Assembly: GCA_041650995.1 (NCBI GenBank)
Contig: JBAZJZ010000001.1
Location: forward strand, 491,302-555,301
DNA length: 64,000 nucleotides
DNA from: Patescibacteria group bacterium
Lineage (GTDB): Bacteria; Patescibacteriota; Patescibacteriia; XYB2-FULL-38-15
Direction of reading: 5' to 3'
In this document: piece by piece, positions 3,417 through 43,667 of the stretch
How positions within the stretch are numbered: position 1 is the first letter of the stretch
Layout of the letters: each line of letters begins with the position of its first letter
Position numbers and translations under genes: made by a program
Notes under the pieces: generated by a model
What the model saw: the letters and a program-made list of their open reading frames with translations, nothing else
The model's database searches: none
Told to the model about the DNA's origin: nothing

Positions 3417-4526
3417 TTATTTATTATTCTGTTCCTTTTTCCATTTTAAATATGCCTCCATAAACTGTTCCAAATCTCCATTAAGCACCGCGTCTGTATC
3501 CGCTGTTTCAAGTTTTGTTCTGTGATCTTTAACCATTCGGTACGGCTGCAAAACATATGACCGAATTTGATTTCCCCACGCCGCCAAAACTCCGGCTCGT
3601 AATTTATCAATTTCCTTTGTTCGGGTCTCCTCCTGCAGATGTAAAATTTTTGCTTTCAAAATTTTTAGGGCGGTTTCTTTATTTTGAGCCTGTGAACGTT
3701 CGCGCTGGCAGCTTACGGTGAGACCCGTGGGAAGATGAACAACTCTAACGGCCGAATAAGTTGTCTGCACGCTTTGTCCGCCGTGTCCGCTTGATAGATA
3801 TGTGTCGATCCGCAAATCTTTCGAATCCAATTTTATTTCTGAGACATCGTCAATTTCCGGCAAAACTTCAACTAAAGCAAACGAAGTATGCCGCATTTTT
3901 TCCGCATCAAAGGGAGAAATACGGACTAAGCGATGAACACCGGATTCACTCCGAAGCCATCCATAAGCCATCCGACCGGTGACTCTTACTGTTATGCTCT
4001 TAATGCCCGCTTCAGAACCACGCGTTTCATCAATAATTTCTGTTTTCCATCCCTTCTTCTCGCAAAACCTAAAATACATTCTGAGAAGCATCTCTGCCCA
4101 ATCCTGGGCTTCAGTGCCGCCCGTTCCGGCATGAATACTCAAAATGGCGTTCGCTCGATCGTGCGGGCCGGAAAATAAAACAAAAAATTCCAACTTCCTA
4201 AATTGAACGAGAAGCTCATTATATTTTTTTTCAATCTCTTCGCGCAAAGAAACTTCTTTGTCCTTTTGATCGAGCTTGGCCAAATCCAAAATATCCCCCA
4301 CTTCTTTTTTTAATTTTTCCCAAACTTCAACCTCTTCTTTCAAATCATTCAATCTCTGGTTCGTTTCCTTCGCCGCTTCCTGATCTTTCCAAAACTCCGG
4401 CGCCAAAGTTAATTTTTCCAATTTGACGATTTCTTTTTTACTATTTCCTAACTTTAAAAGTTCAAAGGCCTTTTCTATCCTCTGCTCCAACTCTTCTATG
4501 CTTTTAACTAATTCGTCCATTTTCAT
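3417..4526 (-). CDS. prfB: Peptide chain release factor 2
   Basis: The SPF tripeptide and the GGQ motif (SGHGGQSVQTT) are both present. The gene is encoded as a single uninterrupted ORF with no programmed +1 frameshift site. Confidence 0.9.
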   Translation of the reverse strand: MKMDELVKSIEELEQRIEKAFELLKLGNSKKEIVKLEKLTLAPEFWKDQEAAKETNQRLNDLKEEVEVWEKLKKEVGDILDLAKLDQKDKEVSLREEIEKKYNELLVQFRKLEFFVLFSGPHDRANAILSIHAGTGGTEAQDWAEMLLRMYFRFCEKKGWKTEIIDETRGSEAGIKSITVRVTGRMAYGWLRSESGVHRLVRISPFDAEKMRHTSFALVEVLPEIDDVSEIKLDSKDLRIDTYLSSGHGGQSVQTTYSAVRVVHLPTGLTVSCQRERSQAQNKETALKILKAKILHLQEETRTKEIDKLRAGVLAAWGNQIRSYVLQPYRMVKDHRTKLETADTDAVLNGDLEQFMEAYLKWKKEQNNK

Positions 4527-4553
4527 AATTTACAACTAACCTCCCGATTAAAG

Positions 4554-5801
4554 TTATTCTTTATACTCGGCAAGTGTTACTCTCACATCTTTTTCTTCGC
4601 CTTTGTGCAAAACTTTCAAAGTTATTTCATCGCCCGGCTTAGATTTAGCAATTTCCTTGGCTAAAGGATGATCTTCGTCTATTTTTTGACCATTCATTTC
4701 CAAAATTATATCATTCTCAACCAAACCCGCTTTGTCGGCCGGTGAGCCGGGCACTATGGCTAAATCCGTCTGCTTTTGGCCGCGGACAATTAATGCCCCA
4801 TAATCTTTTTCCAATTGATTTTCCTTGGCTATTTCTTGATTAATCAAAACATAACGAACGCCGAGCCATGGCCGAATAATTTTTCCATTCATTTTTACGC
4901 TCTCTATATCCTGCTTGGCCGCATTAATCGGAATAGCAAAACCGATCAACTGTCCTTCCTGGTTCATCGCTGTGTTAATGCCAATAACCTGCCCAGCGAG
5001 ATTCACGAGCGGTCCGCCGGAATTTCCCGGATTTATAGCCGCGTCAGTTTGAAGCGCTTCTTCAATAACCTCTGAACCACCAAGTCGATCACTCGCCACG
5101 ATCCGTCGCCCTATGCCAGAAATTATGCCTTTAGTCACGGCATTTTTATATTCCCCGAGAGAATTACCGATGGCAATAACCGTCTGACCAATTTCAATTT
5201 TATCGGAATCTCCCAATTCCACGGTTGGCAAATCTTTGGCGTCAATTTTTAAGACGGCAATATCCAAAACCGGATCAGTGGCTAAAATTTTCGCGTCATA
5301 TCTTTGATCGTCATTTGTAATAACCGTATATTCCGCCGCTGTGTCTGAGACCACATGTTTATTAGTTAAAATCAACCCATCCGAAGAAATTATAAAGCCC
5401 GTTCCCCCGCCAATTTCCGTTTTGCCCGTGCCGCCACTATTACCGCCCGTGTTTGGCTGCTCAAAACCAAAAGGAAAATTAAAACCAAACAAATCGTAAG
5501 GAAAAGTATTTGAATTATTAATTTTACTTAAATCTTTAGAAATAATTATTGAAACAACGGCCGGAGCAACTTTTTTTACGGCGCTAATTGTTGCCGACTC
5601 CTCAATAACCGCCTGAGTAAACACTCTCTCACTTTCATCGTTTCCGATTACAACGTCTTCACCTAAAAAATTCTTTTGAAACCATGGAACAATATGGCTC
5701 TTACCATAAAGCCCGCCGAGCACACCACCCACTCCGCCAAAAATTAAGCCAACGAGCGCCGCAACAGCAATAATTTTTTGAAAAGATTTATCTTGAAACA
5801 T
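4554..5801 (-). CDS. htrA: HtrA/DegP-family periplasmic serine protease with a C-terminal PDZ domain
   Basis: There is an N-terminal TM anchor, a trypsin-like catalytic core with GNSGGPL around the active Ser, and a C-terminal PDZ-like region. Confidence 0.85.
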   Translation of the reverse strand: MFQDKSFQKIIAVAALVGLIFGGVGGVLGGLYGKSHIVPWFQKNFLGEDVVIGNDESERVFTQAVIEESATISAVKKVAPAVVSIIISKDLSKINNSNTFPYDLFGFNFPFGFEQPNTGGNSGGTGKTEIGGGTGFIISSDGLILTNKHVVSDTAAEYTVITNDDQRYDAKILATDPVLDIAVLKIDAKDLPTVELGDSDKIEIGQTVIAIGNSLGEYKNAVTKGIISGIGRRIVASDRLGGSEVIEEALQTDAAINPGNSGGPLVNLAGQVIGINTAMNQEGQLIGFAIPINAAKQDIESVKMNGKIIRPWLGVRYVLINQEIAKENQLEKDYGALIVRGQKQTDLAIVPGSPADKAGLVENDIILEMNGQKIDEDHPLAKEIAKSKPGDEITLKVLHKGEEKDVRVTLAEYKE

Positions 5802-41889: not shown

Positions 41890-42654
41890 TTAAAATTTAA
41901 TTTCCAAAATTTCTCGCGCCAATCTTTCATATGCTTTAGCTCCCTTGCTTTTATCATCATAATGCAAAATCGTTAAACCATGAGATGGGGCCTCGGCTAA
42001 TCTGACGTTTCTCGGAATAACCGACCGAAAAATTTTATTTGGAAAATATTGATACAGCTCTTTTAAAATTGCGTCCGAAAGTCCGACGCGGCTATCAAAC
42101 ATAGTAATGACCGCGCCCAAAATTTTTAAATCCGGCTTGAGGTTATCTTGGACCAATTTAATTGTTTCAAGTAATTGACCAAGCCCTTCCAGGGCGTAAT
42201 ACTCCGCCTGAACTGGGATAAAAACATGATCGGCCGCGGTTAAACTATTTATTGTCAAAAGCCCAAGCGACGGCGGGCAATCAATAATGATGTAATCAAA
42301 ATCATTGCGTGCTTCAAGCAAAGCGTCATATAGACGAAATTCCCGCCTATCAGCACCAACAAGTTCCACGTTCGCTCCGGCCAAAGAAACCGTGGCTGGA
42401 GCAACTTTATAACCCTGAACAGGAGTATTTACAATAATATTTCTAAATGGTGATGCCCCGGCAATGGCTTCATATACACCCTTTTCTAAATTGCGATGAT
42501 CAATACCAAGCCCAGAGGTAGCATTGGCCTGCGGATCCATGTCCACGAGAAGAACAAATTTTCCAAGGTGTGCCAAATAAGCGCCCAAATTTACGGCAGT
42601 CGTCGTTTTGCCCACTCCGCCTTTTTGGTTGACAATAGAAATAATTTGAGCCAT
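41890..42654 (-). CDS. parA: Chromosome partitioning ATPase ParA/Soj
   Basis: A deviant Walker A motif is present (KGGVGKTTTAVNLGA). Confidence 0.9.
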   Translation of the reverse strand: MAQIISIVNQKGGVGKTTTAVNLGAYLAHLGKFVLLVDMDPQANATSGLGIDHRNLEKGVYEAIAGASPFRNIIVNTPVQGYKVAPATVSLAGANVELVGADRREFRLYDALLEARNDFDYIIIDCPPSLGLLTINSLTAADHVFIPVQAEYYALEGLGQLLETIKLVQDNLKPDLKILGAVITMFDSRVGLSDAILKELYQYFPNKIFRSVIPRNVRLAEAPSHGLTILHYDDKSKGAKAYERLAREILEIKF

Positions 42655-42732
42655 AATAAATTATCTGCTCCTTAAGATTTAATCATTATACCCAACTATT
42701 GCTTTTTTGACAACTTTGTCGTAAAATAAGAC

Positions 42733-42816
42733 TAAACTGACGCCGATGTGGCGGAACTGGCATACGCGTGCGACTCAAAATCGCATTCCCTTACGGGATT
42801 GTGGGTTCAACTCCCA
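42733..42816 (+). tRNA. tRNA-Leu (anticodon CAA), long variable arm; CCA not encoded
   Basis: It folds by hand: acceptor GCCGATG/CATCGGC, anticodon loop CTCAAAA, a 14-nt variable arm, and T-loop TTCAACT. Confidence 0.75.
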
Positions 42817-42876
42817 CCATCGGCACTTTGACAAAATATTATATATTAGTTATTCTAATATATAATATAAAATTAT

Positions 42877-42951
42877 AGCGGGGTGGAGAAGTAGCATCTC
42901 GCCTGGCCCATAACCAGGAGATCGCCGGTGCAAATCCGGCCCCCGCAACCA
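42877..42951 (+). tRNA. Initiator-type tRNA-Met (anticodon CAT) with non-canonical features
   Basis: It aligns to the bacterial tRNA-fMet consensus (GCGGGGTGGAG...CCCATAACC...AAATCCGGCCCCCGCAACCA) with an unpaired 1:72 position. It also has C33 in place of U33, and a D-loop lacking the GG dinucleotide. Confidence 0.6.
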
Positions 42952-43036
42952 AAAAATAATTGAATTATATAAAGCCGGGTTTGTAGGAAAGGGGTCGGGA
43001 AAACGTAGTTTTCCCGATTTGCGGAAATATTAAAAC

Positions 43037-43090
43037 CGCGGGGTTTTAAAGAGCGAGGCGATAAATCCGGCCCCCGCAACCAAGTTTTTT
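43037..43090 (+). repeat. Truncated duplicate of the initiator tRNA (5' CGCGGGG stem plus the 3' 20 nt AAATCCGGCCCCCGCAACCA)
   Basis: There is an exact 20-nt repeat of the tRNA 3' end 115 nt downstream of the full copy. The D and anticodon arms are missing from this copy. Confidence 0.6.
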
Positions 43091-43121
43091 TGTCTTTTTT
43101 AAATAAATCCAACGGTAGCGA

Positions 43122-43198
43122 GGCTGGGTAGCTCAGTTGGTTAGAGCGAGGGACTCATAAGCCCTAGGTCGTCGGTTCGATCCCGACCCCAGCCACCA
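43122..43198 (+). tRNA. Elongator tRNA-Met (anticodon CAT; tRNA-Ile2 not excluded)
   Basis: It forms a 77-nt cloverleaf with a G1-C72 pair, anticodon loop CTCATAA and T-loop TTCGATC, and CCA is encoded. Confidence 0.8.
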
Positions 43199-43205
43199 AA
43201 GTTTT

Positions 43206-43667
43206 ATGCTCTTAACAGTCCACGCTACAACCGGCGCCTTAATCGGCCAACAAGTAAATAATCCAATTTTAGCTTTTGTTTTAGGGTTCATATCTCATTT
43301 TGTTTTAGATATGATTCCTCACGGCGATCAAGATTGGATTGAAGAATATAAGAGCGACCAAAAGTCCAAAGCTAGAAAAATCATCTGCATTGTAGCCATA
43401 GATGCAATAATTTTATTTACTTTATTGGTTTCGCGATATTTCTACGGCGACTCCTTTGCTCCGAGTTTAAGTATCGCTTCAGGAATTCTCGGTGGCATTC
43501 TTCCTGATTTCATAGTCGCTTGCCATGAATTATCCGATAGACTCTTTAAAAATTTCTATCGATTCCATTTTATTGTCCATGATTTAATTAAAGTCAAACC
43601 AACAACTGCTCAAGGCCTAGCTTTTCAAGCCATTGTTACTGCCATTCTTTTATTAAATTTTATTTAG
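43206..43667 (+). CDS. Hypothetical integral membrane protein, possibly a YdjM-like metal-dependent hydrolase
   Basis: It is hydrophobic with a conserved-looking H..LD..PHGD pattern. The call rests on weak similarity. Confidence 0.35.
   Translation: MLLTVHATTGALIGQQVNNPILAFVLGFISHFVLDMIPHGDQDWIEEYKSDQKSKARKIICIVAIDAIILFTLLVSRYFYGDSFAPSLSIASGILGGILPDFIVACHELSDRLFKNFYRFHFIVHDLIKVKPTTAQGLAFQAIVTAILLLNFI

Follow-up and report, generated by a model that had tools for sequence, protein, structure and literature searches.

In class II attachment (att) sites, the repeat extends from the T-loop of a transfer RNA (tRNA) gene to the 3' end of the gene or beyond (PMC1762012). Another geometry is known from CTXphi, where two dif-like sites of opposite orientation are separated by about 90 bp and form a 150-nt forked hairpin, and where integration leaves one functional and two non-functional sites (PMC3089051). 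Finally, the 3'ETS-leuZ sponge provides a precedent for a functional RNA encoded in the spacer of a tRNA operon (PMC7815308, PMC8166272). Here, we describe a locus that shares traits with each of these systems. It is located in a stretch of 64,000 nt from a Patescibacteria group bacterium (assembly GCA_041650995.1, contig JBAZJZ010000001.1, positions 491,302 to 555,301, forward strand), which we call the window and from whose first nucleotide all coordinates are counted. In the window, the gene of an initiator-type tRNA with a CAU anticodon is followed, after a short AT-rich spacer, by an element of 109 nt, named X in the following, which ends in a second copy of the 3' end of the tRNA. We tentatively favour the explanation that X, instead of being the decaying scar of an insertion, is kept by selection as a structured RNA element of the operon of the initiator tRNA.

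The direct repeat AAATCCGGCCCCCGCAACCAA, which links the tRNA and X, is exact over 21 nt and thus includes the duplicated 3' 20-mer seen in the initial annotation of this DNA. By chance, such a repeat is expected about 5e-4 times in 64 kb and about 3e-6 times within 200 nt. The duplication is real and lies far beyond chance. Its second copy is kept in all copies of X from related genomes; single substitutions are found in L054 and L008 (handles of this type designate loci of related genomes), and the CCA is absent in L002 and L008.

In the alignments, X is bounded by an inverted copy of the T-arm at its 5' side and by a direct copy of the T-arm and the 3' end at its 3' side. All carriers show the same layout: an AT-rich spacer of 20-29 nt is followed by a block that starts with (G)CCGG(A/G)TTTG and ends with ...CGA(C/T)-AAATCCGGCCCCCGCAA(CCA). 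In L048, L023, L030 and L050, the 5' end of X reads (G/A)CCGGATTTGCA or CGGATTTGCA. The 5' end of X and AAATCCGG(C) are predicted to form P1, a closing helix of 10-11 bp, which encloses three hairpins, P2, P4 and P5. In the relatives, the 5' arm of P1, GCCGGATTTGCA, is the reverse complement of TGCAAATCCGGC, i.e., of the T-loop and the 3' strand of the T-stem; the 5' end of X in L048 is an exact 12-nt reverse complement of TGCAAATCCGGC. In the window, two transitions convert two of the P1 pairs to G.U. The same structure is obtained from RNAalifold and from single-sequence folding. A pseudoknot between CCGCAA of the tail and an internal TTGCGG was considered and discarded: half of the sequences have TCGCGG, which leads to a C.A mismatch. 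Rfam 15 holds no family for X, neither at the gathering threshold nor at E <= 10, and none for the tRNA-Asp analogue described below.

Syntenic loci were recovered via homologues of ParA and by a metagenome scan for the D and anticodon arms of the tRNA. X occurs, with an identity of about 92%, in eight distinct sequences: the window, L002, L023, L030 (identical to L046), L019 (identical to L052), L048, L050 and L054 (identical to L077). A search for further copies with ParA homologues gained only one duplicate sequence, with most contigs ending at the tRNA cluster. X is 0.88-0.95 identical in pairs without the hairpin-insert variants L048 and L050, and the mean over all pairs is 0.87 with the gaps of these two variants included. 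The part of X that does not derive from the tRNA is as conserved as the rest. For comparison, identity amounts to 0.74 in the adjacent open reading frame (ORF) and to 0.50 at its third codon positions, to 0.47-0.66 in the spacers flanking X (a mean of 0.66 between genomes for the 22-nt spacer) and to 0.56 in the 50 nt upstream of the tRNA. Even the closest pair, L002 and L054, still differs at 5% of X. This points to few free and many fixed sites and does not fit a recent sweep.

Variation within X follows the predicted structure. Variable columns make up 4 of 54 stem positions and 21 of 55 unpaired positions (Fisher p = 2e-4). The three stem substitutions all turn a G-C or A-U pair into G.U on the + strand, so that 99.5% of the cells stay paired. 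In P2, G-C became G.U twice independently (L023, L054), and the loop differs by 1 nt in length in L002. Changes in size concern whole hairpins at a loop or junction: L048 carries an 18-nt hairpin, TCCCGC-GATATT-GCGGGA, in place of P5, and L050 an additional hairpin, TCCGCC-GAAG-GCGGA. All variants keep the same architecture, with folding z-scores down to -5.0. The junction strands GGAAAGG and GCGGAAATATT are as invariant as the stems. A covariance model, R1, scores X copies, and only these, at 116-136 bits among 52 related loci (427 kb); plain T-arms align to it at about 14.6 bits as "closing helix plus tail". X thus combines conservation above the neutral level with stems that vary less than loops, as expected of a structured RNA. 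From this comparison, X is under purifying selection.

The tRNA in front of X is itself unusual, and the family features of the bacterial initiator tRNA served as the standard of comparison. ARAGORN calls a tRNA-Met(CAT) with the anticodon at position 33, and Rfam model RF00005 scores 51.2 bits against a gathering threshold of 29, with permissive filters only; the default scan of the whole window (gathering threshold, fast filter) missed the gene. Automated annotation may therefore under-call initiator tRNAs of this kind in the Candidate Phyla Radiation (CPR). The minimum free energy (MFE) structure is a clean cloverleaf. Direct reading agrees with the initial annotation, which had proposed an initiator-type tRNA with an unpaired 1:72 position, C33 and a D-loop without GG, and adds G55 in the T-loop as a further odd feature. 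A1 stands opposite A72, so that no Watson-Crick pair is formed at 1:72; the D-stem GAGA/TCTC yields A11:U24; and the discriminator A73 precedes an encoded CCA. With the CAU anticodon, these features are shared with the bacterial tRNA-fMet, and the acceptor stem and T-stem are almost the same as in the E. coli consensus. Unlike the bacterial tRNA-fMet, the tRNA of the window has A1 instead of C1, a D-loop of 7 nt (AGTAGCA) that lacks G18 and G19, C33 instead of U33 (anticodon loop CCCATAA), and G55 instead of U/psi55 (T-loop TGCAAAT), and thus departs from T54-psi55-C56. Its anticodon stem, CCTGG/CCAGG, provides U29:A41, G30:C40 and G31:C39. The run of three consecutive G:C pairs at 29-31:39-41 is thereby incomplete, the only defining initiator feature that is not fully present, and U29:A41 replaces the third G:C pair in all members of the clade.

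Two lines of evidence contradict the idea that the gene is a pseudogene, an outcome which the initial annotation had named as a refutation of its reading. The 75-nt tRNA is identical, or differs by one base of the variable region (GATC/GACC), in L002, L023, L030, L019, L048, L050 and L054; in the same relatives, identity at the third codon positions of the adjacent protein gene has dropped to about 50%. Furthermore, the odd features are found throughout the lineage. A scan of 185,579 species genomes for the T-arm and the first bases of the acceptor 3' strand (GCCGGTGCAAATCCGGCCCCC) yielded 36 loci, nearly all from Patescibacteria (Saccharibacteria, Falkow-, Wildermuth-, Adler-, Torok- and Tagabacteria), and 31 of the 36 parse as initiator-type tRNAs. 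This sample is biased in so far as the search pattern itself demanded G55. The D-loop has 7 nt in 31 of 31 loci (consensus AGYAGYA) and contains GG in only three; position 33 is C in 20 and U in 11. Position 1 is C in 14 genomes, A in nine, G in four and T in four; T1 (L016, L025, L029, L031) would give a U1:A72 pair, and C1 faces A72 in L008 and L047. D-stems (GAGA/TCTC, GAGC/GCTC, GTGG/CCAT) and anticodon stems (CCTGG/CCAGG, TCAGG/CCTGA, CGGGT/GCCCG) vary with compensation, which is the signature of a functional tRNA family. The syntenic L094 and L095 (ParA 81% identical) have canonical D- and T-loops, still with C33. ARAGORN finds no other initiator-type tRNA in the window. From these comparisons, the gene is a lineage-typical initiator-type tRNA, probably the working initiator, and not a pseudogene.

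An initiator tRNA without G18G19 and psi55, and often without U33, appears to be the normal conserved form in many CPR lineages. Our literature search found no paper that describes these loop features (D-loop without GG, G55, C33) for CPR initiator tRNAs. Elsewhere, C33 is known from initiator tRNAs in multicellular eukaryotes; when present in E. coli tRNA-fMet, it prevents the E. coli t6A enzymes from forming N6-threonylcarbamoyladenosine (t6A) in vitro (PMC8887486). The features described here bear on the folding, the modification (t6A, TrmA/TruB) and the use of the initiator tRNA in the reduced CPR bacteria.

The tRNA cluster is located on the + strand between parA, which is on the minus strand, and the ORF of a membrane protein of 153 amino acids (aa). 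A metagenome contig of the ENA (ERZ27247363:k141_1634642) matches the window without any difference, and the closest named match of the ParA in the window is from Candidatus Falkowbacteria (85%). Genes within about 15 kb are all housekeeping genes (topA, relA/spoT, parAB, scpAB, a glycosyltransferase gene, lon, hisS, pth, der and others), and none for an integrase, transposase, TnpB or nuclease is among them. The tRNA-Leu gene has the same position beside parA in the relatives, and a TTGACA/TTGCCA-17-TATYYT motif is found at the same place upstream of the initiator tRNA in L030, L019, L055 and L034. A scan of 42500-43400 predicted no promoter or terminator between the initiator tRNA and the downstream ORF, nor any intrinsic terminator (GC-rich hairpin with U-run). 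A T-run follows the second repeat copy in the window and in L019, and is absent in L023, L030, L002 and others. The ATG of the 153-aa ORF is located 7 nt past the CCA of the second CAU tRNA and leaves no room for a promoter of its own, so that the tRNAs, X and the membrane-protein gene probably form one transcription unit. By the same facts, X is almost certainly transcribed as part of the tRNA precursor. All features are collected in the table.

Table. Features of the initiator-tRNA locus, in window coordinates
Feature	Position	Strand	Basis and remarks
tRNA-Leu(CAA)	42742-42826	+	ARAGORN; Rfam 57 bits; first gene of the tRNA cluster
Putative sigma-70-like promoter TTGACA-17-TATTCT	42828-42856	+	Consensus scan
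Spurious 79-aa ORF	42873-43112	-	ORF list; broken by indels in relatives
Initiator-type tRNA(CAU)	42877-42951	+	ARAGORN, Rfam, folding, direct reading
Direct repeat copy 1 AAATCCGGCCCCCGCAACCAA	42932-42952	+	Repeat search; T-loop 57-60, T-stem 3' strand, acceptor 3' strand, ACCA and one further nt
AT-rich spacer, 22 nt	42952-42973	+	Resembles the flank after the tRNA at empty sites and after copy 2 in L030 and L023
Element X, 109 nt	42974-43082	+	Alignments, RNAalifold, covariance model R1, conservation versus neutral sites
P1 5' arm GCCGGGTTTGT	42974-42984	+	RNAalifold and single-sequence folding
P2 hairpin, core TCGGGAAAAC-GTA-GTTTTCCCGA	42992-43020	+	RNAalifold and single-sequence folding; 10-13 bp
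P4 hairpin TTAAAACC-GCGG-GGTTTTAA	43030-43049	+	RNAalifold and single-sequence folding; 8 bp
P5 mini-hairpin GC-GAG-GC	43053-43059	+	Alignment, single-sequence folding
P1 3' arm ATAAATCCGGC	43061-43071	+	RNAalifold and folding; overlaps repeat copy 2
Direct repeat copy 2 AAATCCGGCCCCCGCAACCAA	43063-43083	+	Repeat search
Predicted single-stranded 3' tail CCCCGCAACCA, 11 nt	43072-43082	+	Folding; acceptor 3' strand, discriminator, CCA
Second tRNA(CAU), elongator Met or Ile-lysidine type	43122-43198	+	ARAGORN, Rfam
153-aa membrane-protein ORF	43206-43667	+	ORF list; conserved in relatives

The product of the 153-aa ORF carries an HxxxD...PHGD motif and has only a weak Pfam match, to Zn-dependent phospholipase C. 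Orthologues of about 153 aa occupy the syntenic position in L002 and L008, and the public gene collection has no exact-sequence record of the product for this contig. The 240-nt minus-strand ORF that covers the locus had already been judged spurious, and indels of +1, +13 and +19 nt inside it in the relatives bear this out. Elsewhere in the window, an exact intergenic direct repeat of 25 nt, CGGTAGCCGCGGGCTTTAGCCCGCG, itself a hairpin, occurs at 548-572 and 664-688, 116 nt apart, with a hairpin, GCAGCCTAAAGGCTGC, between the two copies.

Comparison of the locus among relatives, as suggested in the initial annotation, revealed clean empty sites in L055, L034, L018 and L057; a large element between the repeats was found in none of the relatives. 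The empty-site loci L055 and L034, and L024 with a GIY-YIG gene at the site, are each nearest to a carrier of X, and the variants of X track the grouping of the hosts by neighbouring gene and second tRNA. Since non-carriers are nested within the carrier clade, X is, on this phylogenetic comparison, an element of the common ancestor that was inherited vertically and lost cleanly at least three times. The flanking direct repeats would make such clean loss easy. The more distant L008 (ParA 81%) carries a different insert of 170 nt with the same right junction, CGAC|AAATCCGGCCCCC(A)CAA; the junction CGAC|AAATCCGG is common to X carriers and L008. R1 fails to align this insert even with filters off, and the insert is therefore not called a homologue of X.

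Outside these loci, no copies of X were detected. The 64-kb window contains none, and the hairpins of X are unique there, which speaks, within the window, against a multi-copy hairpin family of the repetitive extragenic palindrome (REP) type. In IMG/VR, an exact 17-mer from X gave 18 matches, all of them unrelated chance matches, and neither the attP-like junction nor the G55 T-arm with 3' end gave any (0 matches). BLAST of the spacer and X against phage and plasmid collections returned no match. A retro-copy of the mature tRNA, with a reverse-transcription stop near position 58, was also rejected. The second copies follow the flank of the gene: they lack the CCA in L008 and L028, where the gene itself has none, and in L030 and L023 the repeat extends over about 10-20 nt of the 3' flank.

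The metagenome contigs of many relatives stop in or just before the tRNA cluster beside parA (L003, L009, L078, L080-L082), which suggests that the repeats and tRNA fragments at this place break assemblies. In L041, a scaffold gap is flanked by duplicated tRNA-fMet 3' ends, probably an assembly artefact.

Similar layouts were found at other tRNA genes of CPR bacteria. In UBA6257-type Paceibacterota, tRNA-Asp is followed by GGGATTTGAA, the reverse complement of TTCAAATCCC, then by about 110 nt and by CAAATCCCGTCGCGAGCGC with TAAA. The canonical-loop tRNA-fMet of L094/L095 is followed by TTGCGGGACGTTGGGATTCGAA, the reverse complement of most of the 3' 20-mer, then by about 55 nt and GAATCCCACCCCCGCAA, after which further 3'-end modules occur in tandem. 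Three different T-loops (TGCAAAT, TTCAAAT and TTCGAAT) are thus each matched by an exact inverted copy, over 12, 10 and 11 nt, respectively, and chance does not account for this. That the layout is found at three unrelated tRNA loci suggests an undescribed recombination mechanism directed at the T-arm; our literature search found no description of T-arm-centred rearrangements in CPR tRNA operons. For annotators, it follows that tRNA 3'-end repeats in CPR genomes need not mark islands.

Several details of these loci are worth recording. In L028 (820-1020) and L088-L093 (about 4390-4720), the order is tRNA-Asp(GTC), a spacer hairpin, the inverted T-loop/T-stem, the insert and a direct copy of the last 19 nt; the spacing from tRNA-Asp to tRNA-Arg differs among the near-identical strains L088-L093, in part owing to masked N runs. 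In L088-L093 (about 3990-4190), a 5' fragment of the next tRNA (GCCAGGGTAGCTCAGTTGG) is located upstream of the complete gene, tandemly duplicated in L093, and is followed by three hairpins, GCTAAAAGCC.., GGGCAATTA.. and TTCCGCCAGAGGCGGAA with TTTT. L094 (1860-2900) and L095 (1-660) contain an array of tRNA fragments, in which a 5' fragment and a fragment with the 3' two-thirds, both of tRNA-Leu types, flank the intact tRNA-Leu. The 3' end of tRNA-fMet is present four times in the array. The tRNA itself contains the first copy, a second is X-like and has an inverted T-loop, and the remaining two bear hairpins within the T-loop (GCCCAGGG..CCCTGGGC and GGGGAGGG..CCCTCCCC); one of these copies follows the second CAU tRNA and immediately precedes the membrane-protein ORF. 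In L002 (about 4235-4295, minus strand) and L054 (identical to L077), GGATGTGGGTTC-[two small hairpins]-GATCCCGACCCCAGCCA is found just upstream of this ORF. It represents a T-arm whose T-loop carries a 30-nt hairpin insert, and behind it comes the 3' end of a second CAU tRNA of the window type. The CAU tRNA resident in L002/L054 is a different one (GGCGGGG...CCCCGCTACCA), which indicates that the 3' end of the old gene was displaced. GC-rich hairpins with GAAG-type loops recur in unrelated lineages, namely in the X insert of L050 (TCCGCC-GAAG-GCGGA), the Y element of L002 (CACC-GAAG-GCGAG), the element of L028 (ATTCGCC-GAAG-GCGAAT) and that of L095 (CCC-GAAG-GGG), and CAA-CTGC-TTG is the loop context common to the spacer hairpins of L028 and L095.

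ORFs of about 90 aa with a GIY-YIG domain (PF01541, E 1e-14 to 1e-15) are located between tRNA-fMet and the next tRNA in L024, L053 (identical to L056) and L047; the reading frame of the L053 copy is interrupted by a stop codon. Behind the ORF of L047 lies a displaced partial copy of tRNA-fMet that starts in the D-loop and has a different anticodon stem, TCCCG/CGGGA; the stop codon TAG of the ORF lies inside the D-loop sequence AAGTAGCA. Such a homing-endonuclease cassette, which duplicates the 3' part of its target, has the same layout as our locus, i.e., intact gene, insert and displaced 3' fragment. The insert in the window, however, contains no ORF, nor is it the decayed remnant of a GIY-YIG gene.

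If X is a selected RNA element, it would probably stem from a single recombination or duplication centred on the T-loop of tRNA-fMet in the ancestor of a Falkowbacteria-related clade, after which X would have been inherited vertically, held by purifying selection and lost at least three times via the flanking direct repeats. Its ends are predicted to pair into P1 around the three hairpins and to leave the acceptor 3' strand and ACCA as a free tail. In the least certain step, X may act as an RNA that is released from, or remains within, the tRNA precursor. The anti-T-arm strand and the second 3' end could compete with the tRNA's own strands and thus give rise to two alternative precursor folds. 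In the MFE structure of the 207-nt precursor, the 5' acceptor strand pairs with the distal 3' copy and the proximal T-loop/T-stem with the 5' arm of X; the other fold consists of the correct cloverleaf and a self-closed X. These folds could modulate the folding or maturation of the initiator tRNA. X could also titrate a factor that binds the initiator 3' end, as a decoy 3' end.

A number of points weigh against this explanation. The folding z-score of the window's own X is only -1.8, compensatory double substitutions amount to 0 in 27 pairs, and the eight sequences are too similar for this comparative sample to prove the fold. X is dispensable, as the empty sites in close relatives indicate, a finding as compatible with an accessory or selfish element as with a regulator. 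The layout of direct repeat, inverted repeat, insert and direct repeat recurs with unrelated inserts at tRNA-Asp (L028, L088-93) and at another tRNA-fMet (L094/95), which suggests that these elements arose by a common DNA mechanism, rather than that they serve one specific RNA function. The perfect palindromes could also be sites for protein binding or sites in single-stranded DNA. An effect on tRNA maturation, being a thermodynamic prediction throughout, is considered far less probable than a selected RNA element as such.

Among the rival explanations, a still-mobile, non-autonomous DNA element with a folded-hairpin site, whose recombinase is encoded elsewhere and whose conservation reflects the needs of that recombinase, is possible but unlikely. 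The two target-like sequences of X, in opposite orientation and about 80 nt apart in a branched hairpin of about 110 nt, are reminiscent of CTXphi (PMC3089051). The left end equals the exact reverse complement of T-loop and stem at three independent loci, L095 has tandem arrays of such modules, and G.T pairs are tolerated in DNA hairpins as well. Still, X is present in one copy per locus, always at the same locus with host-specific flanks, and nowhere else in the 64 kb; its variation tracks host clades, no candidate recombinase was seen nearby, the viral, phage and plasmid collections yielded no copies, and only 22 nt of "cargo" separate the first repeat from the inverted copy. Quite unlikely, in our view, is a partial tandem duplication of the tRNA 3' end, with X as mere operon punctuation that serves processing, stability or termination and has no role in trans. 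The location in a tRNA operon spacer, the stable hairpins, the T-run after copy 2 in the window and L019, and a duplication that includes 3' flank and follows the gene instead of the mature tRNA (L008 and L028 without CCA) would all fit. However, no terminator-like site appears in the scan, the T-run is missing in L023, L030, L002 and others, relatives with empty sites do without X, and the invariance of GGAAAGG and GCGGAAATATT, equal to that of the stems, implies more constraint than a punctuation hairpin needs.

The initial annotation had preferred an attL/attR scar. According to this explanation, a prophage or an island with an integrase once inserted into the T-loop of tRNA-fMet, and its later deletion left two att repeats and a neutral remnant of about 110 nt. 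The repeat indeed begins in the T-loop and passes the 3' end, as in class II sites (PMC1762012), in L030 and L023 the duplication takes in about 20 nt of the 3' flank, and the same position is empty in some relatives and holds other insertions in others. What speaks against a neutral scar is that the remnant, including its non-tRNA part, is 0.84-0.95 identical where neutral sites are near saturation, is inherited vertically, varies in a stem/loop pattern and is predicted to fold; that neither an integrase nearby nor a relative with a large element between the repeats was found; and that the sequence left of copy 2 is unlike a T-stem half-site. The scar idea thus probably captures the origin of the element but not its present state, and as a full account we regard it as very unlikely. 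The alternative offered in the same annotation, a tRNA followed by an aminoacylatable mini-helix or a tRNA-like second gene, is extremely improbable. In its favour, a 6-bp pairing of CGCGGGG with CCCCGC is possible in the window, and ACCA forms the end of copy 2. But CGCGGGG (43037-43043), which had been taken for the 5' stem of a truncated tRNA duplicate, spans the P4 loop together with the last stem base before it and the first bases of the 3' arm. This loop reads GCGG, GCAG, GATG or GAGG by genome on an invariant stem, so that the supposed 5' strand becomes CGCAGGG, CGATGGG or CGAGGGG in relatives; this variation rules out the segment as a conserved acceptor 5' strand. No T-stem 5' strand is adjacent, neither ARAGORN nor Rfam calls a tRNA in the second copy, and the 47-nt fragment folds no better than shuffles (z = -0.29). 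The distances have to be corrected as well: the gap between CGCGGGG and the second 20-mer is 19 nt, not 27, and counted from the last base of the tRNA, CGCGGGG starts 85 nt and the second 20-mer 111 nt downstream.

A more far-reaching view is an undescribed class of small CPR elements that insert at tRNA T-loops via a folded site of inverted and direct copies of the T-arm and 3' end, with one insertion in the Falkowbacteria-related clade domesticated as a structured RNA that would influence the maturation of the initiator tRNA or the factors binding its 3' end; we regard this as rather unlikely, albeit conceivable.

Compared with the known systems, the locus shares with class II att sites a repeat with its start in the 7-nt T-loop that reaches or passes the 3' end, the empty sites in relatives, and an intact tRNA at one end with a displaced 3' fragment at the other. 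Unlike these sites, it has no integrase or element nearby, and only 110 nt, conserved and structured, separate the repeats; in addition, X contains an inverted copy of the T-loop and T-stem, which ordinary attL/attR pairs lack. With the attP(+) site of CTXphi and integron attC sites, X has in common two opposite target-like copies about 80-90 nt apart, a forked hairpin and one functional target beside two non-functional copies, and the arrangement of two inverted target-like sites 60-140 nt apart that form a predicted hairpin, as in folded-hairpin att sites, is indeed present. In contrast to CTXphi and attC, the target is a tRNA T-arm with 3' end and not dif or attI, R''/R' core motifs are missing, and no phage genome or cassette is attached. 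The window and the collections searched yielded no associated recombinase, no mobile genome or cassette and no multiple copies, and the likeness serves as a lead only. With 3'ETS-leuZ and the metZWV spacers of E. coli, X shares the nature of a conserved non-tRNA segment of the transcript that could act after processing. Whereas those spacers are short, unstructured sponges of Hfq-dependent small RNAs, X is built of several hairpins and repeats the end of its own tRNA. Implementing all comparisons, X represents a conserved, probably structured and so far unannotated element of about 110 nt that mimics and opposes parts of its own tRNA, and thus a candidate regulator or decoy.

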